64,000 nucleotides of DNA from Trueperaceae bacterium (GCA_020354625.1 CP070651.1:2538135-2602134); one strand, 5' to 3'. Shown: positions 22,757-52,389, numbered from the stretch's first letter. Program-made: numbers and translations. The notes: generated by a model from the sequence alone, not told the origin.

Positions 22757-24529
22757 AAGCGCAGCCACCGGTGCGGGTCGATCGGAAACGAACATGTCGA
22801 CACCACCGTCACGCTCCAGGGTTGGGTAAACCGCCGTCGCGATCTCGGTGGGTTGATCTTTATCGATTTGCGCGACCGTGATGGTATCATTCAAGTCGTT
22901 TTCGAACCCGAACGCTCCGAAGCCTTTAAGGTTGCGCAATCGCTTCGCAGCGAGTACGTGATCACGATCCGAGGCGTGGTGCGCCCTCGCCCCAAAAACC
23001 AACGAACCGATCGTATCCAGAGTGGCCACGTAGAAGTTCTAGCCGATACCATCGATATCTTAGCCTCAGCCGATACCCCTCCGTTTCTGATCGATGGCAG
23101 CATCGATGCAGGAGAGGTCAGCGAAGACTTGCGCCTCAGGCACCGCTATCTCGACCTTAGAAGATCCGAAGCAGCCCAACCGATCGTACTTCGCCACAAG
23201 CTTCAGAAAGCGATCTGGGACTATCTCGACCGAGAAGGGTTCATCCAGGTAGAGACACCCCTGCTAACGTTATCGACGCCAGAAGGGGCGAGAGACTACG
23301 TGGTGCCGTCACGGCATAACCCCGGTGCTTTCTACGCCTTACCGCAATCCCCACAGCTATTCAAACAGATGTTGATGATGGCGGGTTTCGACCGCTACTT
23401 CCAGATCGCTCGCTGCTTCCGTGATGAAGACTTGCGCGCCGACCGGCAGCCCGACTTCACCCAGCTCGATATGGAGATGGCTTTTGTCGATCAAGATGAC
23501 GTGCTCTCTCTCAACGAAGGCTTGCTTCGCTATGTAGTAAGCGAGGTCAGAGACCGAGAGGTAACGACGCCGTTTCCCCGCATCCCTTACCGTGAAGCGC
23601 TCGATCGATTTGGGAGTGATAAACCCGACCTTCGATTCGGCTTCGAACTCTGCGACCTCTCCCCTCTTTTCTCCGAGACCGAGTTCCGGGCGTTTCAAGA
23701 GGTGCTGGCGACAGGTGGTGCCATCAAGGGGCTTGTGGTGGCAGCGCCGGAGGCCGAACGCGTTAGTCGAAAGGTTCTCGGGTTGCTCGATGATCACGCC
23801 AAACATCACGGGGCGCGCGGCCTAGCCTGGATACGTAGAACCACGGACGGTTTCGGGGGGCCGATTGCGAAGTTCTTGAAAGCGAGTGAGATTGAAGCGC
23901 TAACAGAACACTGCCCACACCCCGGCGACGTGATGCTGCTGGTGGCGGATCAGTGGTCCTCTGCATGCACGATTTTAGGTGCCGTGCGGTTGAAACTCAT
24001 CGAACTCCTCGAGCTCGAAGCCGACCCCGAGACCTTGGCGTTCGCTTGGATCGTGGACTTTCCCCTCCTGGAGTACGACGAAGAGAAGAACGCCTTCACC
24101 TATATGCACCACCCTTTTACCAGGCCACGAGATGAGGATCTCGACCGGCTCGAAACAGATCCTGGCTCGGTTCGAGCTTGGGCCTACGACCTGGTTCTTA
24201 ACGGCCACGAGATCGGAGGAGGGTCTTTGCGCATCCATCGACTCGATACCCAATTGCAGATGTTCGCCGCGCTCGGCTTCAGCCCCGAAGAAGCACGGCG
24301 CCGTTTCGGCTTTTTTCTCGATGCACTACGCTATGGAGCCCCCCCTCACGGTGGGATAGCCTGGGGGCTGGACCGCTTGATCATGCTCTTAAGCAAGGCA
24401 GAAAGTTTACGAGATGTCATCGCGTTTCCGAAAAACCAACGTGGACAGGATCCGCTTACCGGGGCCCCGGCATTACTCGATGAAGCCCAACTCCAAGAGT
24501 TGGGGTTGCGGATTGTGAACGAGCAATGA
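22754..24529 (+). CDS. aspS: Aspartyl-tRNA synthetase, bacterial type
   Basis: 591 aa. N-terminal OB fold ([26 protein letters not shown]), class II motifs and the GAD insertion domain. [15 protein letters not shown] at the C-terminus. Confidence 0.9.
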
Positions 24530-38970: not shown

Positions 38971-39334
<364 letters not shown>

Positions 39335-39366
39335 GGGGCGGTGCTTCGGCGTCGCCCCTCCTTTTT
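39335..39366 (+). terminator. Terminator after rnpB (GGGGCG-loop-CGCCCC + TCCTTTTTG)
   Basis: 6-bp GC stem followed by a T-tract directly after the rnpB 3' end. Confidence 0.55.
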
Positions 39367-39414
39367 GCCACACACTGCATAGACCACACTCCTCACAAGC
39401 GCCCACAAGGAATT

Positions 39415-39502
39415 GGGGCGAGTGGGTATCGAGTGGGAAAACGTAGCTTGAAACCGTGGGAAAATGGGGCGGAAGTGGGGGAGTGTGGGAATTTGTGGGG
39501 AA
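39415..39502 (+). promoter_or_regulatory. Array of seven TGGG direct repeats (~10-11-bp phasing) over the mraZ promoter; putative MraZ operator
   Basis: Sequence cgagTGGGtatcgagTGGG...ccgTGGGaaaaTGGGGcggaagTGGGggagtgTGGGaatttgTGGGgaaag, followed by the -10-like TACACT at 39510-39515. Confidence 0.55.
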
Positions 39503-39617
39503 AGTGTGTTACACTCCTTTTCGAGGTCAAAGGTTGCGCCGTGACGGCACAAACCGAACCTAAACCCGAGCTGCCGTACGTTACGGTTGGCATAAAAGAG
39601 TGGGGGAAGAGGGGAGA

Positions 39618-40046
39618 ATGCCCTTCGGCGAATTTCAATACACCGTCGACGATAAGGGACGCGTCATCATACCTCCTCCTTTTCGGGAGTTCGTCGAAGA
39701 CGGGATGGTCGTCACCCGAGGCATGGAAGGGTGTCTTTACGTGTTCCCACTCGGCACCTGGCGCCGCATCGAAACACTTCTTACAGAACTCCCGCTCACC
39801 GATCAGCACGCTCGAAATTTTGTGCGTTTTTTCTACTCCGGGGCCGCTAAAGCCAGGCTCGACGCAACCGGTCGAATTACCATCCCTTCGACCTTGCGGC
39901 TCTTTGCAGATACGGATGCAAACGTCATTATCGCGGGCGCACCGAATCGACTCGAGGTGTGGAACGAAGCCAGGTGGCTCTCGAACCTCGCAGACGTACA
40001 GGCCAGCCCACCCGCTCCAGAACTGTTGAGGGAACTGGTCGGATGA
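39618..40046 (+). CDS. mraZ: Transcriptional regulator MraZ
   Basis: Two MraZ/SpoVT-AbrB-like halves with DxxxR motifs (DDKGRVIIP, DATGRITIP). GAGGGGAG ribosome-binding site. The track start at 39600 is less likely. Confidence 0.9.
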   Translation: MPFGEFQYTVDDKGRVIIPPPFREFVEDGMVVTRGMEGCLYVFPLGTWRRIETLLTELPLTDQHARNFVRFFYSGAAKARLDATGRITIPSTLRLFADTDANVIIAGAPNRLEVWNEARWLSNLADVQASPPAPELLRELVG

Positions 40047-40915
40047 GTCTTACCGTGCCCCACAAGCCGGTCCTCCTAGCAACGTGTCTGGAGGCGCTCA
40101 CGAGCGGTTTGCCACAAGACGCTTGGGTGATCGATGCGACGTTCGGGGCAGGGGGGCACAGCCGTGAATTGTTGGGGAGCGGCGTCAAGGTCCTAGCTAT
40201 CGATCAGGATCCCGATGCCAATCGCTATGCGAACGACTTTCGAGGTCCGAGGTTCCGTTTCTTGGTAGGAAACTTTCGCCAACTCGAAGAATTGGTTTTT
40301 GCGGCTCAGATCGAACCGATCGGGGGCATCCTCTTCGATCTCGGGCTCTCTTCGATGCAGCTCGACGAGGCCGACCGCGGCTTCGCTTTTCGGCGTGACG
40401 GCCCTCTCGATCTGCGCATGGGGGGTGTAGGACCGTCTGCGGCCGAGGTGGTGAATACGGCCTCAGAAGAGGAGTTGGCAGGGCTCATCTACCGCTACGG
40501 TGAAGAGCGCCATAGCCGCCGGATAGCACGCGCCATCGTGGCAGCTCGCAAGTCTGATGAGATTACCACCACCTCGCAACTCGCCGAGGCGATCACCCGG
40601 GCCTATCCTCCGGGTCGGCGCCGGGACCACCCGGCCAGAAGGACATTTCAAGCCCTCCGCATCTATGTCAACGACGAGTTGGTAGCGCTCCAAGAGGGTC
40701 TTGAAGCGGCCAGAAGACTCTTGATGCCCGGTGGAAAATTGGTTGTGATCAGCTACCACTCGCTCGAAGACAGAATCGTCAAACATTTCTTTCGGGCGCA
40801 ACTCGAATTGAGGCCCCTCACCAAGAAGCCGCTGGTACCAGAGCCCGAGGAAATCGAGCTAAACCCACGCGCGCGCAGTGCCAAATTGCGTATCGCGGTC
40901 AAGGAGACCTTGTGA
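40043..40915 (+). CDS. rsmH: 16S rRNA (cytosine1402-N4)-methyltransferase RsmH (MraW)
   Basis: SAM-binding motif (DATFGAGGHS) and the HKPVL N-terminus. ATGA overlap with the mraZ stop. The track ORF from 39959 is an overlap-frame extension. Confidence 0.9.
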   Translation: MSLTVPHKPVLLATCLEALTSGLPQDAWVIDATFGAGGHSRELLGSGVKVLAIDQDPDANRYANDFRGPRFRFLVGNFRQLEELVFAAQIEPIGGILFDLGLSSMQLDEADRGFAFRRDGPLDLRMGGVGPSAAEVVNTASEEELAGLIYRYGEERHSRRIARAIVAARKSDEITTTSQLAEAITRAYPPGRRRDHPARRTFQALRIYVNDELVALQEGLEAARRLLMPGGKLVVISYHSLEDRIVKHFFRAQLELRPLTKKPLVPEPEEIELNPRARSAKLRIAVKETL

Positions 40916-41232
40916 AGATGCACCGAAAGACACTGAGCGCTCTTTATATCGTGCTCCTGCTGACGCTCGCCACGCTTGGGGTCCACAACCAACAACAGTT
41001 CCGCTTGCAACATTCGCTGATCCAGGAGAAGGACTCGCAGCACCAGCGCCTGGCCGAACTCCGGGGTATGGCCGCCTCGATCACCAGTCCGTTGGCGGTG
41101 AGCCAGTGGGCCGCTTCTAGCGGCATGATTCCAGCGACCGAAGCGGGTGACTTCGAGCAGGTCACGCCCCTTACAAGCCCGGAGCCGATCCCCCTTGAGA
41201 GCGGACTGGAGGTCAGAACGGTATGGCGCTGA
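40912..41232 (+). CDS. ftsL: Cell division protein FtsL-like (septum formation initiator family)
   Basis: Short bitopic protein with one transmembrane segment plus a coiled coil, between rsmH and ftsI. Overlaps both neighbours. Confidence 0.5.
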   Translation: MKMHRKTLSALYIVLLLTLATLGVHNQQQFRLQHSLIQEKDSQHQRLAELRGMAASITSPLAVSQWAASSGMIPATEAGDFEQVTPLTSPEPIPLESGLEVRTVWR

Positions 41233-42611
41233 ACAAGAAATCAGGGTCTCCCACACAACTCTACTTGGCCAGGCGCTATCTGGTATTGATGCTGGCGGTG
41301 GTCCCGCTCTTCGCTGCACTCGGCGGCTTTGTGAGACAACAGCTTCAGCTGCCGACCTGGCCTGCACCCATGGCTGAACCCATTCCGAGGGGTAGGATCT
41401 TGGCTCGCGACGGAACCGTACTCGCCGAAGGAGCAGCGAGTTACCGGCGCTATCCACAAGGCCAACTCGCCTCTCACCTCATCGGGTTCAGCGGCGCGGT
41501 ACAACCAGATGGGCGTTACGGGCTCGAGGGGCTCGAATATACGTACGACCAACGTCTCCAAGCAGGAGAGCCGGTGGTGACGACGCTCGATCCCACCTTG
41601 CAAGCAGCTGCAGAGCGGCATCTCAGGGACGCTATCATCAGACACGAAGCCGACAACGGTGCGGTCGTAATGATCGAAACGGGAACAGGACACGTTTTGG
41701 CCGCTGCAAGCTATCCGAGCTTTGACCCCAATATGCGAGAGACGCGTACCCAAGCTGCTCTTACCAACCGGGCATTTTTGCAACAGTACGAACCTGGTTC
41801 GGTCATGAAACCCTTTGTGGTGGCGGCACTACTAGAGAGCGGTCGCCTGAGGCCTGATGAGGTCATTCCTGCTGAAATGGCGTTGCGGGTGGGATCCAAG
41901 ACGTTCAGAGACGTCGCTCAGCACGACTCTCATTTGGCCGTCCCCGATATCTTGCGGTACTCGAGCAACGTGGCGATGATCCACTTGAGCGATCGCTTTA
42001 CGCCAGAAGAGCAGCACGCTTGGCTCAGACACTTCGGGTTCGGGCAAGAGATGGGGTTGAACTCGATTTTTACCCGCACCGGCCAACTCAACCACTGGCA
42101 GCACTGGGTACCACAAGACAAGGCCTCGATCACCATCGGTCAGAGTGTGTCGACCACCGCGTTGCAGCTGGCAGCTGCCTATAGTATCTTCGCCAACGAC
42201 GGCCTCTACATACCGCCCCAATTGGTGGTAGGCGAAAAACTCAGCCTACCCAAACGGGCCCTCTCCCCCGAAACAGCGCTGGCCGTTCGAAGCATGCTCG
42301 TCTATACGGTCGAGGAGAGCAGCCTCCGCAACTCGAAGATTCCATTTGTCAGCGTGGCCGGCAAGACCGGTACGGCCGACATTTTCGATCAGGCCTCGGG
42401 ACGCTACATCGACGGCGACTACACGCTCGGTTTCGCCGGTATCTTCCCGGCCGAGAACCCGCGGATCACCATGGTGGTCTACCTTCAAAAGCCGCGTAAC
42501 GGTACCATGAGCACCCTGGTGGCAGCGCCCCTTTTTCGAGCCATCGGCAGCGAAGTCGTTGCCCATTGGGGCCTACCGCTAAACGCTTTGACCTATGTCG
42601 GACAGCCCTGA
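41223..42611 (+). CDS. ftsI: Peptidoglycan D,D-transpeptidase FtsI (PBP3)
   Basis: N-terminal transmembrane segment, dimerisation domain, and transpeptidase motifs SVMK, SSN and KTG. Confidence 0.9.
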   Translation: MALNKKSGSPTQLYLARRYLVLMLAVVPLFAALGGFVRQQLQLPTWPAPMAEPIPRGRILARDGTVLAEGAASYRRYPQGQLASHLIGFSGAVQPDGRYGLEGLEYTYDQRLQAGEPVVTTLDPTLQAAAERHLRDAIIRHEADNGAVVMIETGTGHVLAAASYPSFDPNMRETRTQAALTNRAFLQQYEPGSVMKPFVVAALLESGRLRPDEVIPAEMALRVGSKTFRDVAQHDSHLAVPDILRYSSNVAMIHLSDRFTPEEQHAWLRHFGFGQEMGLNSIFTRTGQLNHWQHWVPQDKASITIGQSVSTTALQLAAAYSIFANDGLYIPPQLVVGEKLSLPKRALSPETALAVRSMLVYTVEESSLRNSKIPFVSVAGKTGTADIFDQASGRYIDGDYTLGFAGIFPAENPRITMVVYLQKPRNGTMSTLVAAPLFRAIGSEVVAHWGLPLNALTYVGQP

Positions 42612-42676
42612 TCTATCGTGTGTAATATGTGTAAAATAGTGAAATTGTCGATCTAGGTAGCTGGAGGCCTCGCTGC
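42612..42676 (+). promoter_or_regulatory. AT-rich 65-bp spacer inside the dcw cluster (TGTGTAATATGTGTAAAATAGTGAAATTGTCGATCTAGG); candidate internal promoter for murF onward
   Basis: About 35% GC in a ~65% GC cluster. Contains -10-like TAATAT/TAAAAT and a weak S7 copy of the recurrent motif. A GGAGG ribosome-binding site precedes the murF GTG. Confidence 0.3.
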
Positions 42677-43975
42677 GTGCTTACAACGGACATCATCCTC
42701 AGCCTCACCCCGGGTAGGCGGCCGGTCGCGGAACTCGATCCAGCGACCGGTGTCTCTTTCCACTCATCACGCGTTCGGCCTGGAGACGCGTTTTTTGCGC
42801 TTCCTGGTGCAAACCAGCACGGGATCTCTTTCGCCGCCGCTGCGCTCGAACGCGGGGCGGCTTTTATCGTCTCCGACCGGGCGCACCCCATGGGCGTCAC
42901 GGTCGATGACCCTCGAGGAGCCCTCCTCGCACTCGGGAACTACGCCAGATCGCAACTCAGCGACCCGGTGATCGGCGTGAGTGGTTCCGCAGGCAAAACG
43001 AGTACCAAGGCATTTCTCGCGTATACACTCGGCGCCAAAACGAGTCCGGGGAACTACAACACGCCGCTCGCCCTGGCCGCCGTTCTGACCGACACCTGGC
43101 TTCAAGGGAACCATCACCAGCCACTCGTGCTCGAGCTCGGAATCGACCACCGTGGCGAGATGGCGGAGTTACTCGATCTCGTCAAGCCCACCCACGGCCT
43201 GCTCACCATCATCGCCGAGAGTCACCTCTCTGGAATCGGTACATTGTCGTCGGTGGCCGAAGAAAAAGCTCGTCTTCTCGCCGCCTCCGAAGTGGGGTTG
43301 GCGAGCCTTCAAGCGGCGCAGCTTCTCCCGGCCCGACTCAAAGAGAGGGTATATACCTACGCGCTCGCAGGCCAGGGTGCGACCTTCGAAGCGGAACTCT
43401 TGGAACAGACGCCTTTTCAGCAACGAATCCGTTTTGAGGGCGTCACTTTTACGCTTCCCTATCCCGGTCGAGCCATGGCCGAAAACGCTACGGGGGCCCT
43501 TGCGATGGCGTCTTTGCTCGGCAACTCGATCGAGGCGTCGGCCCGCTCCCTGGAGAGGGCGGTCATCGAACCCGGCAGGCTGCAGCATCGGAGGATCGCA
43601 GGAGCGCTGGTGCTCGATGACACCTACAACAGCAACCCGGCCTCAGCCCGGCTCGCACTCGAAGTCTTGTCCGGTTGCCCTCCCCCACGAACCGCCATCC
43701 TCGGCGATATGCTCGAGCTCGGCGAGCGTGGTCCCGCGCTGCACGAAGAACTCGGAAGACTGACGCGCGGCATCGAACACGTGATTGCGGTGGGACCTCT
43801 CGGCGCCCATCTCAAACGCGGCAATCCCGAAGCCAAACACCTTCCAGATACCGAGGCGGCTCTGTCGCTCATCGGAGACATACCTCTTGAGGGGAGCCTT
43901 CTTATCAAGGCCTCAAGAGGTATGCGCTTCGAAAAACTGATCGATGAGATCGCTCGGAACGAGGGTACCCGTTGA
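42677..43975 (+). CDS. murF: UDP-N-acetylmuramoyl-tripeptide--D-alanyl-D-alanine ligase MurF
   Basis: Mur ligase motifs (IGVSGSAGKTSTK). GTG start. Confidence 0.88.
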   Translation: MLTTDIILSLTPGRRPVAELDPATGVSFHSSRVRPGDAFFALPGANQHGISFAAAALERGAAFIVSDRAHPMGVTVDDPRGALLALGNYARSQLSDPVIGVSGSAGKTSTKAFLAYTLGAKTSPGNYNTPLALAAVLTDTWLQGNHHQPLVLELGIDHRGEMAELLDLVKPTHGLLTIIAESHLSGIGTLSSVAEEKARLLAASEVGLASLQAAQLLPARLKERVYTYALAGQGATFEAELLEQTPFQQRIRFEGVTFTLPYPGRAMAENATGALAMASLLGNSIEASARSLERAVIEPGRLQHRRIAGALVLDDTYNSNPASARLALEVLSGCPPPRTAILGDMLELGERGPALHEELGRLTRGIEHVIAVGPLGAHLKRGNPEAKHLPDTEAALSLIGDIPLEGSLLIKASRGMRFEKLIDEIARNEGTR

Positions 43976-44889
43976 CGTTACTTATCGCCGCACCGCTCTC
44001 GCTACTCCTCACCGGACTATTCGTACTGTTCGCCAAACAGTACGGTTGGGGGAAGAGCGTGCGCGAGGCAGGACCGGTAAGCCACCAGGTCAAGTCTGGA
44101 ACTCCGACTATGGGAGGAATGGCCTTCTTGATCGCGGCCTGCGCGAGCTGGCTCCTCATGGGTGGCGCCCGCGATGAGGCGGTGCAGGCGGTCGTGTTCC
44201 TCACGCTCGCCAGCGGCGCATTGGGGTTGGTAGACGATCTCACTTCCCTGCGTCGCAAGAACCGCCGTCGCGGCGGCGACAAAGACGTCTCGACCGGCCT
44301 GCTCGCCCGTTACCGCCTGTTGGCCCAAACGGCGATAGCGCTCGTCTTCTCCCTCTATGTCGTAAGCGCTGGACATACCCTGTTCGGCCAGGAGCTGGCG
44401 GATACCGTCGCGTTTACCATCATCATCGTCGGGAGCGTGAATGCGCTCAATTTTAGCGATGGGCTCGATGGGCTCGCCGCCGGAATGATGGCTATCATAT
44501 TGCTCCTTTTTGTGGCGAACCCCTTTGCCCTCGCGCTCCTCGGGGCCCTTTTGGGCTTTTTGTGGTACAACAGCCAGCCCGCTCGCGTGTTCATGGGTGG
44601 GGTGGGAGCAGAGGCGCTTGGGGCAGCGTTAGCGGGTCTGGCCATTATGAGCGATGTGAGCTGGTATCTCCCCCTCATCGCCTTGATGCCCGTCTTGGAA
44701 GTCCTATCTGTCATCATTCAGGTTTCGTATTTCCGCCTAAGTGGCGGCAAACGCATTTTTCGTATGAGTCCACTGCACCATCACCTCGAGCTGAGCGGTT
44801 GGAGCGAGGCCCGGGTAGTCAGCCGCTTCTATCTCGTCACAGCCGTCTGCGTCGCGCTTACTTGGATCCTCTGGGGAGGTGCGGCGTGA
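43972..44889 (+). CDS. mraY: Phospho-N-acetylmuramoyl-pentapeptide transferase MraY
   Basis: Polytopic membrane protein with MraY motifs (GTPTMGG..., NxxNxxDGxDGL). TTGA overlap with murF. Confidence 0.9.
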   Translation: MTLLIAAPLSLLLTGLFVLFAKQYGWGKSVREAGPVSHQVKSGTPTMGGMAFLIAACASWLLMGGARDEAVQAVVFLTLASGALGLVDDLTSLRRKNRRRGGDKDVSTGLLARYRLLAQTAIALVFSLYVVSAGHTLFGQELADTVAFTIIIVGSVNALNFSDGLDGLAAGMMAIILLLFVANPFALALLGALLGFLWYNSQPARVFMGGVGAEALGAALAGLAIMSDVSWYLPLIALMPVLEVLSVIIQVSYFRLSGGKRIFRMSPLHHHLELSGWSEARVVSRFYLVTAVCVALTWILWGGAA

Positions 44890-46226
44890 AGGTACTGATT
44901 TACGGTTTGGGACGGAGCGGCCTACCGGTACTGAGGCTTTGCCACGACCAACAACACGAGCTACTCTTTTTTGAGGCGCGTGCCGAAGGGGCAGATATCG
45001 AAGAGGCGATACAGCTCGGCGCCGAGCGTATCACCACCGTTGCAGGGGTACCGTGCGACCTATGCATCGCCGCCCCTGGGGTGCCTTTCGATCACCCGGA
45101 TCTCGCTACCCTGAGGTCCGAAGGTGTTGAGACCATCGGTGAGATCGAGTGGGTCTACCGCAGTACGGAAAATCGGATTATCGGTGTGAGCGGCACCGCC
45201 GGGAAGAGCACTACCACGCTCTGGATATCTGAAGCGTTCAAACGGGCGGGCCACGATGCACCCGCCGGTGGCAACATCGATCCCGCCCTCTCAGCGGTTG
45301 TTCGGCCGGGCGCTCTCTTGGTGGCGGAACTCTCTTCTTTTCAACTCGAACGATCACCCACTCTGCGTTGTCGTACGGCGGTTCTCTTGAATTTGGGCAG
45401 CGACCATTTAGACCGGCACGGAAGCCTCGCCTGCTACCACGCAGCCAAGCGCCGGTTGGTCGACAATCTTACCGACGAGGACCTGCTCGTCTTTAACTAC
45501 GACGATGACAAGGTCAGCAGATGGGCCTCGGAATGCCGCGCCGACACAAGATCCTTTTCGCTAAGCAGGCGCGCCGACGCCTGCCTCGACCGCAATGGCA
45601 CGACACTCATCTTGGACGGCACACCGCTGCTCGATCGTTCAGAGTTGAGCCTGAAAGGCGATCATCAGGTCGCCAATGCCCTCGCCACGGCGCTCGTCTG
45701 CCGACACTACGGCTTGTCGGTACCCGAAATTCAGACGGCCTTGCGCGGGTTCACCGGCCTGCCGGGACGCTACAGTGAAGTCCGTACCCTGGGCGGTATC
45801 AGCTTTATCGAGGACTCTATCGCCACACGAGAACTCGCTGTTAGAGCCGCACTGCACACTACGCAGCCACCGATCGTATGGATCGGAGGCGGGGCCGACA
45901 AAGGAGCCGACCCGTCTTCGTTGCGGTCGCTGATCCTCGAAAAGGTCACCCTCTTCATCGGCATCGGCGCGTCGGGTGCCCAGCTCGCCGACGCCGTAAA
46001 GGATTGGACCGAAGTTTTCGTCTGTCCACAGCGATCGGGAGAGGCTGCACTTCGGTGTGCGGTCACGGCTGCGACCTCGCACCTACAAAACCACCACAAG
46101 GGCCGTGGGACAGTCCTATTGGCCCCATTGGCAGCTTCATTCGATCAATTCAACGACTACGCACACCGTGCCGCCGTGTTTCGGCAAACGGTCGAGCTTC
46201 AGGAGCGACAGTGGACCCACTCCTAA
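44886..46226 (+). CDS. murD: UDP-N-acetylmuramoylalanine--D-glutamate ligase MurD
   Basis: Sequence VKVLIYGLGRSG...GVSGTAGKSTTT. GTG start overlapping the mraY stop (GTGA), with a GGAGGTG ribosome-binding site. The track ORF from 44562 is an overlap-frame N-terminal extension. Confidence 0.88.
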   Translation: MKVLIYGLGRSGLPVLRLCHDQQHELLFFEARAEGADIEEAIQLGAERITTVAGVPCDLCIAAPGVPFDHPDLATLRSEGVETIGEIEWVYRSTENRIIGVSGTAGKSTTTLWISEAFKRAGHDAPAGGNIDPALSAVVRPGALLVAELSSFQLERSPTLRCRTAVLLNLGSDHLDRHGSLACYHAAKRRLVDNLTDEDLLVFNYDDDKVSRWASECRADTRSFSLSRRADACLDRNGTTLILDGTPLLDRSELSLKGDHQVANALATALVCRHYGLSVPEIQTALRGFTGLPGRYSEVRTLGGISFIEDSIATRELAVRAALHTTQPPIVWIGGGADKGADPSSLRSLILEKVTLFIGIGASGAQLADAVKDWTEVFVCPQRSGEAALRCAVTAATSHLQNHHKGRGTVLLAPLAASFDQFNDYAHRAAVFRQTVELQERQWTHS

Positions 46227-47263
46227 TCACCATTCACCTCATGCTCGGTGCCTTAGGAGTTCTAGCCGTTTCTGCCGGTGCACCCGAGCTGGCGCTGGTG
46301 CAGGCGCTACGCTTTTTAGGATGTTTCGTCCTGATGGCGCTCATCGCTCGGGTAACGCCAAAACAGGTGGTGCGCGCGAGCCCCTACGCATATGTCGTGG
46401 TGCTGATCTTGCTGATCTCCGTGCTGATTTTCGGCGTCAGCCCACAAGGGAGCGAGAGCAAGCGTTGGCTCCTCCTGGGCGGCGTCACGATCCAACCATC
46501 GGAGCTGCTCAAGGTGAGTGTCATCGCGTATCTGACCGCCTTTTTCCACAATCATCTGGGCAACTGGCAGATCTGGAGGCCGATGGTGGTCATCGGGGTA
46601 GCAGCAGGGCTGGTCGTAGTAGAACCAGATGTGAGCACGGCTATCTTCCTGTTCGCCCTGGCATTCGCCATTATGCTCGCAGCGGGCACGACACTCCTCA
46701 GGTTGATCAGTATCAGCACGTTCGCAGCCCTGATCGCCTTTCTGGTCGCCGGTTCCTACCTCAGCCAGTACACTTACCTCACCGAGCGGATCACGGGATT
46801 TCTCGACATGAAGGGGCCTCGCGAGTACACCTCCTCGACCAGTTACCAAGCCTTTCGGGCCCAAGAGGCGTTGCAGCGCGCCGGCCTCTTCGGCATCGGA
46901 CCCGGTCGCCCGGTGCGGGTTCCCGAGGCCGAGACCGACATGGCCGCGGTATCGATCGGGCAATCCCTCGGGCTTGTCGGCATCGCCACGCTCATCATCC
47001 TCTTCGTCTTGCTCGCCGCACGAGGCATCCGCATCGCAGCAGCCTATCCCGGCCCGGGGAGTCTGTTAGCCGCCGGCGCAACCACCTATATATGCTGCCA
47101 AGCAGGTTTGAACCTACTCGTGACCTCAGGCCTGTTCCCGGTAACGGGTATGCCGCTCCCATTTGTGAGTTACGGGCTCAACAGCCTCGTTTCGGTATCG
47201 ATCGCCCTCGGTTTCATCCATAGCAGCTACCGCTACGCCGTAACGCAGGGAGTCACGCCGTGA
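46211..47263 (+). CDS. ftsW: Cell division protein FtsW (SEDS family peptidoglycan glycosyltransferase)
   Basis: 10-transmembrane SEDS architecture. GTG at 46211 preceded by AGGAG. The track ORFs 45878.. and 46057.. are misframed extensions. Confidence 0.85.
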   Translation: MDPLLITIHLMLGALGVLAVSAGAPELALVQALRFLGCFVLMALIARVTPKQVVRASPYAYVVVLILLISVLIFGVSPQGSESKRWLLLGGVTIQPSELLKVSVIAYLTAFFHNHLGNWQIWRPMVVIGVAAGLVVVEPDVSTAIFLFALAFAIMLAAGTTLLRLISISTFAALIAFLVAGSYLSQYTYLTERITGFLDMKGPREYTSSTSYQAFRAQEALQRAGLFGIGPGRPVRVPEAETDMAAVSIGQSLGLVGIATLIILFVLLAARGIRIAAAYPGPGSLLAAGATTYICCQAGLNLLVTSGLFPVTGMPLPFVSYGLNSLVSVSIALGFIHSSYRYAVTQGVTP

Positions 47264-48375
47264 GGCGAAGATACTATCTCTTTGCTACGGGTGGAAGTGG
47301 AGGTCATATCTACCCCGCGCTCGCCGTTGCGGCTGCAGCACAAAGACGCGGCATCGAGGTCGGGTTCATCGGGCACGCAGGAGGTATGGAGGCCTCGATC
47401 GTGCCAGATTCGAACTTCGATTTCTACGGTGTCGCCGCCGGTAAATGGCAAAGGGGTGCGCCCGATCCGAGGCAGGCTCTGCGGGCGCTGTGGGGGCTCG
47501 TGGAAGCTTCGCGGCTTCTCAAACGGCTGCGACCAGACCTGGTAGTCGGTTTCGGAGGCTTTGCAAGCTTCCCCGCGTGCTTCGCGTCGAGCCTATTCAA
47601 CCTACCCTTTGTATTGCACGAGGGAAACGCGTTCCCCGGCCGAGTCACCCGTTGGTTTGCAGGCCGTGCGCTTGCGGTTCTTACCTCTCAGCCGGAAGCC
47701 GCGAGCAAACTCCAACATGCAAAACGGCTCGAGGACGTGGGCTTTCCCATCCGCGAACAGCGCCTCTCGAAAGAAGACGCACGTCGTGAACTCGGATTAC
47801 CACAACAGGGCACGGTCACGCTCGTGCTCGGTGGCTCTCAAGGATCATTGACGCTCAACAAGGAAGTTCCTCTCGCCTACCGCGCCTTGCGAGAAGACGT
47901 GGGTCGAGAGCTCGGCACCGTTCTTCACTGTACGGGGGCGCGCTGGTTAGAATCCGTGAGGGCCTCGCTTCCAGAAGACCGGCGTTATTTGCTCAAGGGC
48001 TACGTGGAGGCTACGCTCGCTTGGTCCGCAGCCGACCTCGCCATTACCCGAGCCGGCGTGAGCACGCTGGCAGAAGCCGCATTTCACGGCGTACCCGTGA
48101 TCATGGTGCCCTTGCCTTCGGCGGCCGAAAACCACCAACGGCACAACGCTCAGGCGGTGGAAGCCGCTGCTGCAGGGCGAATGGTCGAGGAGCCGGATCT
48201 CTCCGAACTGCCACGGGTATGGCGTGAGTTTCTCGATCCCGAGGTGAGGAGATCGGCTGCATATGCCGCAAAGGCCCGATCTCCAGAGGGTGCGGCCGAA
48301 CAGTTCCTACTCCTCTTCGATTCCCTGCTCACGACGAGCATTGCGGCAGCCAGGGCCGGTAAGGGGGCGCTGTGA
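47260..48375 (+). CDS. murG: UDP-N-acetylglucosamine--N-acetylmuramyl-(pentapeptide) pyrophosphoryl-undecaprenol N-acetylglucosamine transferase MurG
   Basis: GT28 signatures (FATGGSGGHIYPALAVA). GTGA overlap with ftsW. Confidence 0.9.
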   Translation: MRRRYYLFATGGSGGHIYPALAVAAAAQRRGIEVGFIGHAGGMEASIVPDSNFDFYGVAAGKWQRGAPDPRQALRALWGLVEASRLLKRLRPDLVVGFGGFASFPACFASSLFNLPFVLHEGNAFPGRVTRWFAGRALAVLTSQPEAASKLQHAKRLEDVGFPIREQRLSKEDARRELGLPQQGTVTLVLGGSQGSLTLNKEVPLAYRALREDVGRELGTVLHCTGARWLESVRASLPEDRRYLLKGYVEATLAWSAADLAITRAGVSTLAEAAFHGVPVIMVPLPSAAENHQRHNAQAVEAAAAGRMVEEPDLSELPRVWREFLDPEVRRSAAYAAKARSPEGAAEQFLLLFDSLLTTSIAAARAGKGAL

Positions 48376-49748
48376 AGCCCCACCTTCACTTCATGGGCAT
48401 CGGTGGGATCGGCATGAGCGGTCTCGCCCGCTGGTACGCGCTCGACGGCTACCGCATCTCTGGCTGCGACGCAGTCGATACACCGCTCTTGATGGAATTG
48501 CGGCAAGCTGGCCTACAGGTACACGTCGGCCACAACCCCGATCACCTCGAAGACGCTTCGGTCTTTGTGAGCAGTATGGCGGTACCCGATCACCACCCAG
48601 AGATTCTTACTGCCAGAAGCAGAGGCCTGCGCATGATGAAGCGGATCGAACTGCTCGCCGATCTCTGTCGTAAGCGAAAAGCCGTGGCCGTCACGGGAAC
48701 CCACGGCAAGAGTACCACCACCGGCATGATCGCTTCGATCTTCTTGGGGCTAGGCCAGGATCCCTCGGTGCAACTCGGAGCCAACCTCCCCCTCCTCCCT
48801 GGAAACTACCGCTACGGTGGGGGTGAGCATGTTATCGCCGAGGTCGACGAATCCGACCCGGGGTTCGCGCAGCTCGAGAGCGAACTCGCCATCATCACTA
48901 ATCTAGAAGACGACCATATCGCCGGAAACTTCGAGGAGCGGCGCAATTACCACGCCAGCTTCGCCGACCTACAAAGAGCAACGAGGGAGTTTTCGCAGCG
49001 TACGAAACAGCTCCTCATCTGTGCCGACTGGCGTGAGCTCGGTACCCTTCTCGGGGATCTTGGCAACACGCTCAGCTACGGTTTCGACCCTTCTTCTGAC
49101 TATTATATCGACAAGCTCGAGCTCGCCGAGACGGGGTGCCGGTTCGAGCTCAGAACGCCGAACGGGAGCCGTCATCCGATCAGATTGGCGATACCCGGCA
49201 GACACAACGCGCAAAACGCAACCGCAGCGCTGGCAGCAGCCGACCTCGCCGGTCTTCCGCTCGAGGCAGCCGCCCGGCAACTCGGACGGTTCTCCGGGGT
49301 GGGCCGGCGCTGGCAGGTGTGGTCCTCAAAAGCCGGCACCCTGATCATCGACGACTATGCCCACCACCCGACCGAAGTCGCGGCCACTTTGACAGCAGCC
49401 CACGATACGGGACGTAGAGTCAGAGCCGTGCTCCAACCCCACCGTTGGATCAGGACCGCGCTCCACTGGGAGGCGCTGGCAGACGCCGCATCACTAGCCG
49501 ACGAAGTTCTAGTTCTCGATATCTACAGCGCGGGAGAGGAGGCCATCGCCGGTATCGGACCCGATCTCATCGCCCATAGACTACAGAAAGGGGGTACCTC
49601 AGCAAGCTGCCACGATCTCGCCTCGGCCAGCGACTACCTCTTGCGTACGCTCGTCGAAGGCGACTTGGTGATCACCCTCGGGGCCGGAGACGTCTGGAAA
49701 GTCGCCGAGTCGATCACAAGGCATCTAGAGGAGCGCCATGCCGGTTAA
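48372..49748 (+). CDS. murC: UDP-N-acetylmuramate--L-alanine ligase MurC
   Basis: Sequence HFMGIGGIGMSGLA...VTGTHGKSTTT. GTGA overlap with murG. Confidence 0.9.
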   Translation: MKPHLHFMGIGGIGMSGLARWYALDGYRISGCDAVDTPLLMELRQAGLQVHVGHNPDHLEDASVFVSSMAVPDHHPEILTARSRGLRMMKRIELLADLCRKRKAVAVTGTHGKSTTTGMIASIFLGLGQDPSVQLGANLPLLPGNYRYGGGEHVIAEVDESDPGFAQLESELAIITNLEDDHIAGNFEERRNYHASFADLQRATREFSQRTKQLLICADWRELGTLLGDLGNTLSYGFDPSSDYYIDKLELAETGCRFELRTPNGSRHPIRLAIPGRHNAQNATAALAAADLAGLPLEAAARQLGRFSGVGRRWQVWSSKAGTLIIDDYAHHPTEVAATLTAAHDTGRRVRAVLQPHRWIRTALHWEALADAASLADEVLVLDIYSAGEEAIAGIGPDLIAHRLQKGGTSASCHDLASASDYLLRTLVEGDLVITLGAGDVWKVAESITRHLEERHAG

Positions 49749-50571
49749 AACAGTCGCGCGCCGGGTCGAACTCAAAGATTACACCACCTTGCGCATCGGA
49801 GGACCCGCTGAGCTATGGGAGGTCGAAACGCTTGCGGAGCTGAAGGAGGCTACCTCCGCCCCCTTCCGTATCCTCGGTGCAGGCTCGAACCTGCTGGTCT
49901 CCGACCGCGGTGTGCGCGAGCGTGTCGTCAAGCTCGGAGCGGCCTTCAATAGTATCCGCACCTTCGACCGAGACCCTGAGCAGTGGATCGGTGCGGCCAC
50001 GCCCGTTCCTGGCCTGGTGCGACGAGCGCAGCGCTTAGGACTCTCTGGGCTCGAGGGCCTGTTGGGTGTTCCAGCTGTGCTGGGCGGCGCGATTGCGATG
50101 AATGCCGGGACCCGCTTCGGAGCCGTGAGCGACAGTTTGCTCGAACTCGAACTCTCTATCGGAGGACGAATCGAGCGCATCGAGGCCGACCAAGTCTCCT
50201 TCGGCTACCGCTGGGCCGAACTGCCGAAAGGGGGCGTTGTCACCCGGGCTCGCCTCGCGCTCACCCCGTCGACCCCCGACCGCGTCGAAGCGCGCCTGCG
50301 TGAGGTCGATGCCGCACGAGCCGGCCAACCCAAGATCAAATCGGCCGGATGCGCCTTCAAGAACCCTGCGGGTGACAGTGCGGGACGGCTCATCGATGTC
50401 GCTGGGCTCAAGGGGCTTCGGGTAGGCGATGCCATGGTTTCTCTCGAACACGGAAATTTCATCGTCAATCTGGGGAACGCCAGCGCCAAGGATATATGCG
50501 GCCTGCTCGAACTCATACAAAACCGGCTCCCCTCACCTCTCGAACTCGAGTGGTGCCTCTGGGGGTTCTGA
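49738..50571 (+). CDS. murB: UDP-N-acetylenolpyruvoylglucosamine reductase MurB
   Basis: FAD-binding PCMH domain (GGPAELWEV...GAGSNLL). 11-nt overlap with murC. Confidence 0.85.
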   Translation: MPVKTVARRVELKDYTTLRIGGPAELWEVETLAELKEATSAPFRILGAGSNLLVSDRGVRERVVKLGAAFNSIRTFDRDPEQWIGAATPVPGLVRRAQRLGLSGLEGLLGVPAVLGGAIAMNAGTRFGAVSDSLLELELSIGGRIERIEADQVSFGYRWAELPKGGVVTRARLALTPSTPDRVEARLREVDAARAGQPKIKSAGCAFKNPAGDSAGRLIDVAGLKGLRVGDAMVSLEHGNFIVNLGNASAKDICGLLELIQNRLPSPLELEWCLWGF

Positions 50572-51170
50572 TGCGCCTCTTCGTGATCATGCTCTTCGCT
50601 TTCGGCAGCCTGCTCATGATCGTGACCCGGCTGACACCGAAAGTGGACCGGATCGAAGTGAGTGGCAACGAACACTACAGCCGCGATGAGATCTTGGCGC
50701 TCGCAGACGTGAAGCCGGGCGATCCCTTCTTGTGGGTGACCAGCTGGCGGGTGGCCGAGCTGGTCCGCGATCCGTGGATCACACGGGTACGCATCACAAG
50801 GCACTGGCCCCATACCATCTCCATCGTGGTCTGGGAACGGAAGCCGGTGGCGACCGACGGCGAGACAACGTGGGCTCAAGATGGTACAGTCTTGCCAGAG
50901 GTAGACGCTCGGGTTCGCGCAGAGTTGGTCGAAATCACCGGGTGGGGTCTGCCGCGTATCACCGAGGCGCTAGAACTCGTACCGATGTTGGAACCGTTCG
51001 GGCTTCAAGTGATAAGCTACACGCCAGAAGGTTTTGAGATCCAACTGCCAGAGTCCTCGCTTTACACGCCGAGCATCAGAGCGCTACGCGATCACTGGGG
51101 AGCAGTTGTAAGCCAAGAAGGGAGACGTGTGGCCGTCTACCCCTGGGGAGTGAGCAGAGCAGATGACTGA
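50571..51170 (+). CDS. ftsQ: Cell division protein FtsQ/DivIB (POTRA domain)
   Basis: Transmembrane segment then POTRA (VDRIEVSGNEHYSRDEILALADVKPGD). TGATG overlap with murB. Confidence 0.7.
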   Translation: MRLFVIMLFAFGSLLMIVTRLTPKVDRIEVSGNEHYSRDEILALADVKPGDPFLWVTSWRVAELVRDPWITRVRITRHWPHTISIVVWERKPVATDGETTWAQDGTVLPEVDARVRAELVEITGWGLPRITEALELVPMLEPFGLQVISYTPEGFEIQLPESSLYTPSIRALRDHWGAVVSQEGRRVAVYPWGVSRADD

Positions 51171-52389
51171 TGAACGTATCATCGTCGGGCTGGATATCGG
51201 CACCACCAAGATCTGCACCGTGATCGGGGAGGTTGCCAGCGACGGTGTACTCGATGTAATCGGTGAAGGCACAGTACCGAGCGATGGGCTTCGCAAAGGG
51301 GTGGTGGTAAACCTCGAACGAACCATCGCATCGGTGCGCCAATCGATCTCGGCCGCGGAGCGGGTGGCGGGTGTCAAAGTAAGCTCTGCTTGGGTTGGGA
51401 TCGCAGGGAGTCACCTCAAGGCGTTGACCAGTCACGGGATGGCTGCGATCCGCCGCGGTCAGGAGATTACCAAAGCAGACGTCGAACGGACCATCGAGAA
51501 CGCGCGCGCTGTACCGCTTGAAGCCAATATGGAGATCATCCACGTCATCCCGCAGGAGTATGTGGTCGACGGGCATGACGGTATCAAGGATCCTGCCGGT
51601 ATGTCGGGAGTTCGGCTCGAGGTCGACGTCCACCTGGTAGCAGGCGCACAGGGACCGCTTCAAAACCTCAAGCGATGTGCCCGAGACGCCGGCGCGGAGG
51701 TTGACGGTCTCGTGGTTCAGGCGCTCGCTTCGGGTCTCGCTGTGCTGAACCAACGAGAACGGGAAGTGACGACGCTCCTGATCGACATCGGAGGCGGCAC
51801 CAGCGATGTCGGAGTATTCCGGCGGGGCACACTGGCACACTCGGCGGTGATCCCGCTCGGTGGAGACCACATCACGCAAGATATCAGCCAGCTGCTTCGC
51901 ATCCCCCCCGATGAAGCCGAGCGGGTGAAAAAACGCTACGGTGTCGCGTTACCTGAGCTCGCCGATCGGGAGGTCGAACTCGAGGTTGCAAACCCGAGTT
52001 ATACCGCGTCGCTTTCAACGTTTGAACTATCTCAGGTGATCAAGCCTCGGGTGGTAGAGGTCTTGGATCTGATCAGACAAGACATCGAACAGAAGATGGG
52101 CGCTCTAGAATTGCTGGCCGGCAATGTCGTCATTACGGGTGGGGCTTCACTCATGCCTGGGCTCGACCGAGTGGCAGCAGAGCGTTTCAGACTCCCCGTG
52201 CGGATCGGAAAACCGGTGAACGTCTCGGGGCTCGTCGATGTGGTGGCCAGCCCTGCACACGCAACCGCTGTCGGCTTGGTGCGCTACGGGATGTCACAGG
52301 GGGAACGAGCCGTCACCCCGATGCAGCGCGAAGACGGTATCGGGAACGTACTCGCGAAAATCCGCAACGTACTGAAGGATTTCTTTTAA
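51163..52389 (+). CDS. ftsA: Cell division protein FtsA
   Basis: Actin-like ATPase (IVGLDIGTTKICTVIGE...). 8-nt overlap with ftsQ. Confidence 0.9.
   Translation: MTDERIIVGLDIGTTKICTVIGEVASDGVLDVIGEGTVPSDGLRKGVVVNLERTIASVRQSISAAERVAGVKVSSAWVGIAGSHLKALTSHGMAAIRRGQEITKADVERTIENARAVPLEANMEIIHVIPQEYVVDGHDGIKDPAGMSGVRLEVDVHLVAGAQGPLQNLKRCARDAGAEVDGLVVQALASGLAVLNQREREVTTLLIDIGGGTSDVGVFRRGTLAHSAVIPLGGDHITQDISQLLRIPPDEAERVKKRYGVALPELADREVELEVANPSYTASLSTFELSQVIKPRVVEVLDLIRQDIEQKMGALELLAGNVVITGGASLMPGLDRVAAERFRLPVRIGKPVNVSGLVDVVASPAHATAVGLVRYGMSQGERAVTPMQREDGIGNVLAKIRNVLKDFF

Follow-up and report, generated by a model that had tools for sequence, protein, structure and literature searches.

Does the array of TGGG repeats that precedes mraZ in a Trueperaceae genome act as an operator for the MraZ protein itself? 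MraZ is among the most widely conserved bacterial regulators, and its gene heads the cell-division gene cluster (dcw). To our knowledge, characterisation of MraZ operators is limited to a few Proteobacteria, Firmicutes and Mollicutes. A literature search returned no paper on MraZ operators in Deinococcota, and no binding, footprint or transcription start site (TSS) data for any Deinococcota species. Here we analysed a 64,000-nucleotide stretch of DNA from a Trueperaceae bacterium (hereafter the window), in which a first-pass annotation had interpreted phased TGGG repeats over the mraZ promoter as an MraZ autoregulatory operator. The analysis supports this reading, and all of its computationally testable predictions held, including those on the residues of MraZ. 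We put the probability at roughly 85% that the array is the MraZ operator at the mraZ-dcw promoter of this bacterium, where MraZ would bind and repress.

The array lies between two well-defined genes, which occupy the positions assigned to them in the first-pass annotation. On the upstream side is rnpB (RNase P RNA, bacterial class A; 38975-39333, plus strand), a full-length match to Rfam RF00010 (294.7 bits) that falls outside the operator. A terminator scan located an intrinsic terminator directly behind it on the plus strand (39335-39366), consisting of a 10-bp GC-rich hairpin (39335-39358) and a T run; this element is predicted to insulate the mraZ promoter against upstream transcription. 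The spacer from the rnpB terminator to mraZ is 260 bp long. mraZ itself lies at 39618-40046 on the plus strand (Pfam PF02381 MraZ, 1.6e-29), and the rest of the dcw cluster, identified by Pfam matches, follows on the same strand over a putative operon extent of 40043-52389. It comprises rsmH, a small ftsL-like ORF, ftsI, a Mur ligase gene, mraY, (murD), ftsW, murG, murC, murB, ftsQ and ftsA. The ORFs after mraZ are all co-directional, with many overlapping by a few bases (4 bp). mraZ is a bona fide mraZ and the first gene of a complete, canonical dcw cluster, and the remaining dcw genes are presumably under the mraZ promoter. The gene order is itself conserved: rnpB is the immediate same-strand neighbour 5' of mraZ in most Trueperaceae and in a single Deinococcus metagenome-assembled genome (MAG), and the rnpB 3'-end signature precedes mraZ in at least 52 of the 80 listed related loci. 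The order Bmp-family lipoprotein, rnpB, mraZ is also found in T. radiovictrix. The RNA gene and dcw are thus in conserved synteny.

Eight plus-strand copies of TGGG lie within 86 bp of the rnpB-mraZ spacer (39414-39499), with starts at 39414, 39423, 39434, 39457, 39465, 39476, 39486 and 39496 and successive spacings of 9, 11, 23, 8, 11, 10 and 10 bp. The first-pass annotation had placed seven copies between the two genes; the location was correct, but the count missed TTGGGG at 39414. It had also given the last four copies a spacing of 10-11 bp, which we measured as 11/10/10 (39465-39496). The minus strand carries no TGGG inside the array and a single copy in the rnpB-mraZ spacer, at 39402. 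A ninth plus-strand copy is located at 39601, just 5' of the mraZ start codon.

We divided the copies into a proximal and a distal group. The proximal array (39465-39499, plus strand), the core of the predicted MraZ operator, consists of four in-phase boxes: P0 (TGGGG, 39465), which lies 11 bp before P1, followed by P1, P2 and P3, each a GTGGG, at 39475, 39485 and 39495 (TGGG at 39476, 39486 and 39496). P1 to P3 read GTGGGggagtGTGGGaatttGTGGGgaaag. The distal cluster (39414-39437, plus strand) contains D'' (TGGGG, 39414-39418), D' (GTGGG, 39422-39426) and D (GTGGG, 39433-39437), which lie 62, 53 and 42 bp upstream of P1. The leading G is missing from two of the eight copies, those at 39414 and 39465. 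The remaining copy, a GTGGG at 39456-39460 on the plus strand, is out of phase, 8 bp before P0. It is specific to this genome, with no TGGG at its offset in any of the listed relatives, and its function is doubtful.

The local clustering of these copies is exceptional. Over the whole window TGGG is not enriched (457 copies vs 496 +/- 20 expected), yet the densest 90-bp bin holds eight copies and the runner-up five. In 200 dinucleotide-preserving shuffles, the maximum averaged 4.0 and reached 6 only once. The published MraZ consensus, GTGG-N6-GTGG-N6-GTGG, has one exact match in the 64 kb, at 39475-39498, 120 bp upstream of mraZ. The shorter pattern TGGG-N6-TGGG matches twice elsewhere in the window, at 24352 and 48394, which is at chance level (4 vs 1.9 +/- 1.4 expected). 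We also considered a second TGGG cluster at 44552-44619 (five copies in 68 bp) and rejected it: it lies unphased inside the mraY ORF, in a Gly-rich segment, and is very likely coding-driven.

We then compared the region upstream of mraZ across related genomes. A scan with one genome per species yielded at least 80 loci, almost all from Trueperaceae, with MraZ identities of 61-82%; 79 of the 80 listed loci had enough upstream sequence, and 320 bp upstream of mraZ were searched. The first protein-database search gave only Trueperaceae, and Deinococcus and Marinithermus were reached by a search seeded with the protein of a Deinococcus MAG. The repeat conservation and phasing that the first-pass annotation had proposed to check were borne out by the orthologous spacers. 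TGGG-N6-TGGG-N6-TGG was present upstream of mraZ in 72 of the 79 listed loci, compared with one match in the 844 kb of remaining locus sequence (both strands). Distances between TGGG pairs upstream of mraZ peaked at 10 bp (100 pairs), with further peaks at 11 (29), 20 (20), 41-42 (91) and 51-52 bp (91), whereas the coding-region control was flat.

Anchoring the alignment on the first core box, P1 (39476 in the window), gave the Trueperaceae consensus GTGGGAaAT.GTGGGAaA.TGTGGTAgA.T. The anchor itself requires TGGG at P1 and P2, which all 71 anchored loci accordingly have; P3 is TGG in 71 of 71. Across the anchored listed loci, the boxes carry 2.0 bits per column vs approximately 0.2 for the flanks. 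Sequence change has therefore reached saturation in the flanks and gaps but not in the boxes, indicating that the boxes are under selection and not simply too young to have changed. A TGGG corresponding to P0 occurs at -10/-11 in 5 of 71 species, and a handful of relatives carry one at about -10 to -12. Two low-GC Deinococcales MAGs (L077 and L080; MraZ identity 61-65%) have no TGGG array within 260 bp upstream of mraZ; their AT-rich spacers may hold a GTGT-type box as in Mollicutes, or the operator may have been lost.

The conserved repeats match operators that are known to be bound by MraZ. Published MraZ boxes read GTG(G/T) and are separated by 6-nt spacers; most bacteria have three of them, Mycoplasma genitalium four (PMC12957436). 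The cryo-EM structure from M. genitalium places one MraZ subunit on each box, with K13, R15 and R86 reading GTG(T/G) and neighbouring subunits of an opened octamer ring binding cooperatively (PMC12957436). Box-by-box mutation led to a stepwise fall in MraZ binding and repression, and lengthening the spacer between boxes was tolerated by the wild-type oligomer but not by a monomeric mutant (PMC12957436). In Bacillus subtilis, three GTGG[A/T]G repeats are needed for MraZ repression (bioRxiv 10.1101/2022.02.09.479790). The MraZ of M. gallisepticum, as cited in PMC12957436, has been reported to be an activator, which speaks against taking repression for granted. The box and spacing in the window equal this published consensus, as the first-pass annotation had argued from the MraZ-type architecture, and come close to the E. 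coli operator.

For E. coli, the Pmra operator is described as three GTGGG/TGGGN direct repeats (Eraso et al. 2014, as cited in PMC12957436). Read from the MG1655 genome (NC_000913.3), the region runs TTGACA-18-TAAACT followed by GTGGGaaattGTGGGgcaaaGTGGGaataa, which ends 20 bp before the ATG and is nearly the same sequence as the Trueperaceae consensus. E. coli and the window share the GTGGG box, the 10-bp period, the A-rich spacers and the direct coding-strand orientation, together with a site just upstream of an mraZ that heads dcw and an MraZ with DXXXR motifs. The placement is different. In E. coli, three boxes lie 3' of the -10, approximately 20-45 bp before the ATG, with no distal box. 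The window has four in-phase boxes 5' of an extended -10, which they abut, without a canonical -35, and adds three boxes 42-62 bp upstream of P1 and a leader of approximately 96 nt. As the E. coli boxes lie 3' of the -10, unlike those of the window, the repression mechanism is not simply transferable.

The M. genitalium operator, built from AAAGTGT-N3 repeats, has four consecutive boxes at 10-bp spacing that overlap the promoter/TSS region (cryo-EM complexes 9qlr and related entries; PMC12957436), and its binding is cooperative and oligomer-dependent (PMC12957436). The window resembles it in having four boxes at 10-bp spacing and in the presence of K13, R15 and R86 in its MraZ, but the box is GTGGG rather than GTGT and the genome is GC-rich. 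Unlike M. genitalium, Trueperaceae and Deinococcota sites add a phase-locked distal box and have up to 8 copies. With B. subtilis, the window shares the GTGG core, the 10-bp period and a triple repeat that is unique in the genome (B. subtilis) or in the window; the B. subtilis repeats number only three, with 4-nt spacers, and a distal element is not reported there (bioRxiv 10.1101/2022.02.09.479790).

The MraZ protein of the window would be able to read such boxes. It aligns with M. genitalium MraZ (PDB 9qlr) without gaps over residues 3-133 (E = 1.7e-16) and keeps both DXXXR motifs, D11-K13-R15 and D82-R86. With K13, R15 and R86 retained, the box-reading residues are all present. An identical protein (100%) is annotated as MraZ in a Trueperaceae MAG.

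Next to the boxes we identified a predicted extended -10 element, TGTTACACT (TGn plus TACACT; 39507-39515, plus strand). The hexamer TACACT at 39510-39515 begins 10 bp after the last TGGG, confirming the position of the sequence that the first-pass annotation had read as a -10 about 10 bp past the array, and it forms part of a conserved TGnTAnnnT. This element occurs at a fixed offset from P1, +20 or +30/+31, in all 72 anchored listed loci. In the +20 class (47 loci), the third box itself supplies the TG of the -10 (TGGTAGAAT, TGGTAGACT and similar). The +30/+31 class (25 loci, including the window with TGTTACACT) has three full boxes followed by TG(T/C/A)TA(C/A/G)ACT. In each of the 72 anchored listed loci, the core boxes abut or overlap the extended -10. 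TTACACT or TGATACACT also follows the boxes in Deinococcus species and T. radiovictrix. A generic sigma-70 -35/-10 scan found no promoter here and no canonical -35, consistent with an extended -10 promoter without a good -35; in the window, the -10 is predicted from its conservation. Computed from the hexamer at 39510-39515, P3 lies at about -26 relative to the inferred TSS, P2 at about -36 (the -35 slot), P1 at about -46 and P0 at about -57, in agreement with the earlier view that the repeats occupy the -35 region. A GTGT at 39504-39509 lies just before or overlapping the -10, roughly where a fifth box would fall.

This position raises the possibility that the repeats belong to the promoter itself, as core or UP-like elements, or that a factor other than MraZ binds them to control the Deinococcota dcw promoter. 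P2 in the window, and P1 in most relatives, lies exactly at the -35 slot, where TGGGAA matches TTGACA at 3 of 6 positions, and the last box overlaps the TG of the extended -10, so that conservation could partly reflect RNA polymerase contacts. However, a -35 and a -10 leave three to five identical 10-bp direct repeats and the copy at -42 unexplained. The same box and spacing are bound by MraZ experimentally in E. coli, B. subtilis and Mycoplasma, at differing promoter positions. Because the position of the boxes relative to the promoter varies across phyla, the motif tracks mraZ and not polymerase geometry, and we consider this explanation improbable.

We give similarly little credence to the proposal that the G-tracts fold into an intramolecular G-quadruplex (G4) on the non-template strand and that this structure, rather than MraZ binding, regulates the promoter. 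A G4 has been reported in the S. aureus PmraZ and claimed to be conserved in other bacteria (PMC11796246). Like that promoter, the window has a G-rich, multi-tract coding-strand sequence upstream of mraZ: a canonical G4 motif, GGGAAAATGGGGCGGAAGTGGGGGAGTGTGGG, starts at 39458 and follows the G3+N1-7 x4 rule, and the G4Hunter score of 2.04 at 39466 is the highest on the plus strand in the 64 kb. Unlike the S. aureus case, however, the G4 rule is not the conserved property in the Trueperaceae lineage. Among the listed relatives, no more than 6 of 72 proximal arrays, and 12 of 76 upstream regions, have four G3 tracts with loops of at most 7 nt. What is near-universal in relatives is the 10-bp phasing, the leading GT and a degenerate third box, TGGT, whereas a G4 needs neither a 10-bp phase, nor a T or GT before its tracts, nor a box 42 bp away. 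The G4 potential of the window looks like a by-product of its many GTGGG boxes.

The least credible explanation, that the array arose by chance or as low-complexity sequence, for example through recent functionless tandem duplication of a 10-11-bp unit, draws on a weak period-11 array (TRF, 39482-39508, score 33) and on a 22-nt direct repeat (39456/39485, 77%) that, with the box at 39457, hints at local duplication adding copies, but it is refuted for the core, which clusters above all 200 shuffles and has been kept in approximately 70 species despite fully diverged surrounding intergenic sequence, and is possible only for the 39457 copy.

The region also contains motifs in the opposite orientation. 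CCAC occurs upstream of the array at 39368, 39384 and 39403. In addition, a C/A-rich stretch with CCAC motifs pairs with P2-P3 in an imperfect inverted repeat of 23 nt (39385-39407 / 39484-39506, 74%). We rejected a divergent (inverted) box array as a candidate: in the -170 to -70 region of relatives, CCAC/CCCA is not enriched over GTGG/TGGG (98 vs 78), and the inverted CCAC motifs are neither periodic nor positionally conserved there.

From the repeats, their phasing and conservation, the promoter element and the DNA-reading residues, all of which the sequence analysis shows, we propose how the MraZ operator may work. Each GTGGG would form a single box, and one subunit would read its major groove through the beta-strand 'cradle' (K13, R15 and R86). 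With boxes 10-11 bp apart on one helix face, neighbouring MraZ subunits could bind cooperatively. P0-P3 (39465-39499) would cover the -35 region and the spacer of the TGTTACACT promoter, and bound MraZ would exclude RNA polymerase, leading to negative autoregulation of mraZ, rsmH, ftsL, ftsI and the downstream genes. It is from the overlap of the boxes with the polymerase footprint that we infer repression by occlusion, rather than activation. The distal boxes (39414-39437), lying four, five and six turns upstream in register with the proximal array, would most likely add length or stability to the same oligomeric complex.

The distal box shows a conserved distance to the core. In 65 of 71 species, a TGGG at D precedes P1 by 41-42 bp, and allowing 40-43 bp raises the count to 68 of 71; D' is present at -52/-53 from P1 in 17 of 71. 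The 36 bp separating D from P1 are unconserved, with 0.23 bits per column vs 1.18 for D. Comparable layouts were found outside Trueperaceae: in T. radiovictrix, D accompanies four proximal boxes at a distance of 42-43 bp, in Marinithermus hydrothermalis it accompanies six at 44 bp, and in three Deinococcus genomes (the L079 MAG, D. peraridilitoris and D. radiomollis) 42-43 bp separate D from a proximal box. Arrays of 4-8 boxes, instead of the usual three, also occur in Deinococcus, T. radiovictrix and Marinithermus. Judged from these genomes, multi-box bipartite operators appear to be a Deinococcota trait and are not peculiar to the window genome. The first-pass annotation had described an extension to seven repeats here; the multi-box character stands, but it is Deinococcota-wide rather than special to this genome, and the 39457 copy is out of phase.

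A distance of 42 bp corresponds to four helical turns, which would place D on the same helix face as the core. The published tolerance of the MraZ oligomer for split boxes makes an operator divided into proximal and distal parts plausible, and this tolerance together with the register of D suggests one extended MraZ assembly. We tentatively propose, as a possibility that we would not favour on present evidence, that the Deinococcota operator departs from the textbook three-box site and is bipartite and register-locked, with 3-5 proximal boxes over the core promoter plus 1-3 distal boxes four to six turns upstream (-42, -53, -62), so that 80-90 bp would be laid along or wrapped around one opened octamer or filament. 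Counting from D' to P3 in 10.5-bp steps gives eight positions, the number of MraZ ring subunits, such that one octamer may span 80-90 bp. In a register-locked operator, the D-P1 gap may be free in sequence and constrained in length; specific contacts would be made only at the ends of the 80-90 bp, with the core promoter inside the complex.

A further motif accompanies the distal box in many class A (3-box) relatives. There, the distal box is followed 12 bp on by CCACA, giving GTGGGAGAGATnCCACA, a GTGG-N8-CCAC palindrome that is absent from the window. It occurs approximately 30-42 bp upstream of P1 in L020, L023, L027, L028, L033, L035, L040, L042, L046-L048, L051-L053, L061 and L075, and might represent two boxes in inverted orientation or a place where a second factor binds. 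Farther out, six relatives without rnpB close upstream (L003, L022, L029, L044, L070 and L071) have a second extended -10-like motif approximately 120-130 bp upstream of P1 (gTGCTAGACT, gTGCTAAAGT or gTGCTACAAT), followed by a T-rich stretch. This motif may drive a small gene or RNA, as yet unannotated, located between the upstream gene and the mraZ operator.

Downstream of the promoter, the mraZ 5' leader is predicted to span approximately 96 nt (39522-39617, plus strand), with its start deduced from the position of the -10. The leader RNA showed no significant structure (fold z-score -0.48) and no Rfam match with E < 0.1. A riboswitch, attenuator or sRNA was rejected for the window on this z-score and on an Rfam match that was only sub-threshold (E = 0.18). 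In L017 and L019, a strong terminator-like hairpin with a T run (ACGAACAGC-N8-GCTGTTCGTTTTTAT) lies directly 3' of the mraZ -10 and may be an attenuator; the window has no equivalent of this hairpin.

The leader of the window ends in a further pair of G-rich motifs (39600-39614, plus strand), a GTGGG at 39600-39604 (-17 from the ATG) and a degenerate AGGGG at 39610-39614. The 9-mer at this site, AGTGGGGGA, is identical to that at P1. A gTGGG-N5-7-TGG[G/A] pair precedes the mraZ start in 20 of the 80 listed loci and is located exactly at -17 in 18 of the 20. Loci with the pair at -17 include L001-L003, L016, L031, L032, L055, L059, L074 and L078, and L082, L084 and L088 have it as well. T. radiovictrix, Marinithermus (-16/-6) and Deinococcus (-27/-17) are among its carriers, and in Deinococcus it precedes a distinct purine-rich stretch. 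The position-locking of the pair to the ATG suggests a role in ribosome binding, and 39600-39614 is probably the ribosome-binding region. Given its GT prefix and 10-11 bp spacing, it is possibly also an auxiliary two-box MraZ site, and the GTGGG pair before the start codon might form a third contact point of a bipartite MraZ complex.

MraZ boxes upstream of mraZ are expected; the putative Deinococcota operator belongs to a phylum in which it has not been described before. Its variant features are the greater number of boxes, the phase-locked distal box and the placement over the -35/-10 instead of downstream. The same GTGGG/10-bp code is found in Deinococcota, in the window and in approximately 80 relatives, and this sharing supports an ancient pairing of MraZ with its box. 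The practical value is modest, namely a confident annotation of the dcw promoter and operator in Trueperaceae, Deinococcus and Marinithermus genomes. Only the distal-box layout might bring new insight into the way the MraZ oligomer engages DNA. A distal box at +/-42 bp, combined with multi-box arrays, provides a testable handle on why MraZ is an octamer or dodecamer, and tests are feasible, as T. radiovictrix and Deinococcus species are culturable. If the bipartite reading is true, these arrays would offer a natural system for studying MraZ oligomer geometry in vivo.
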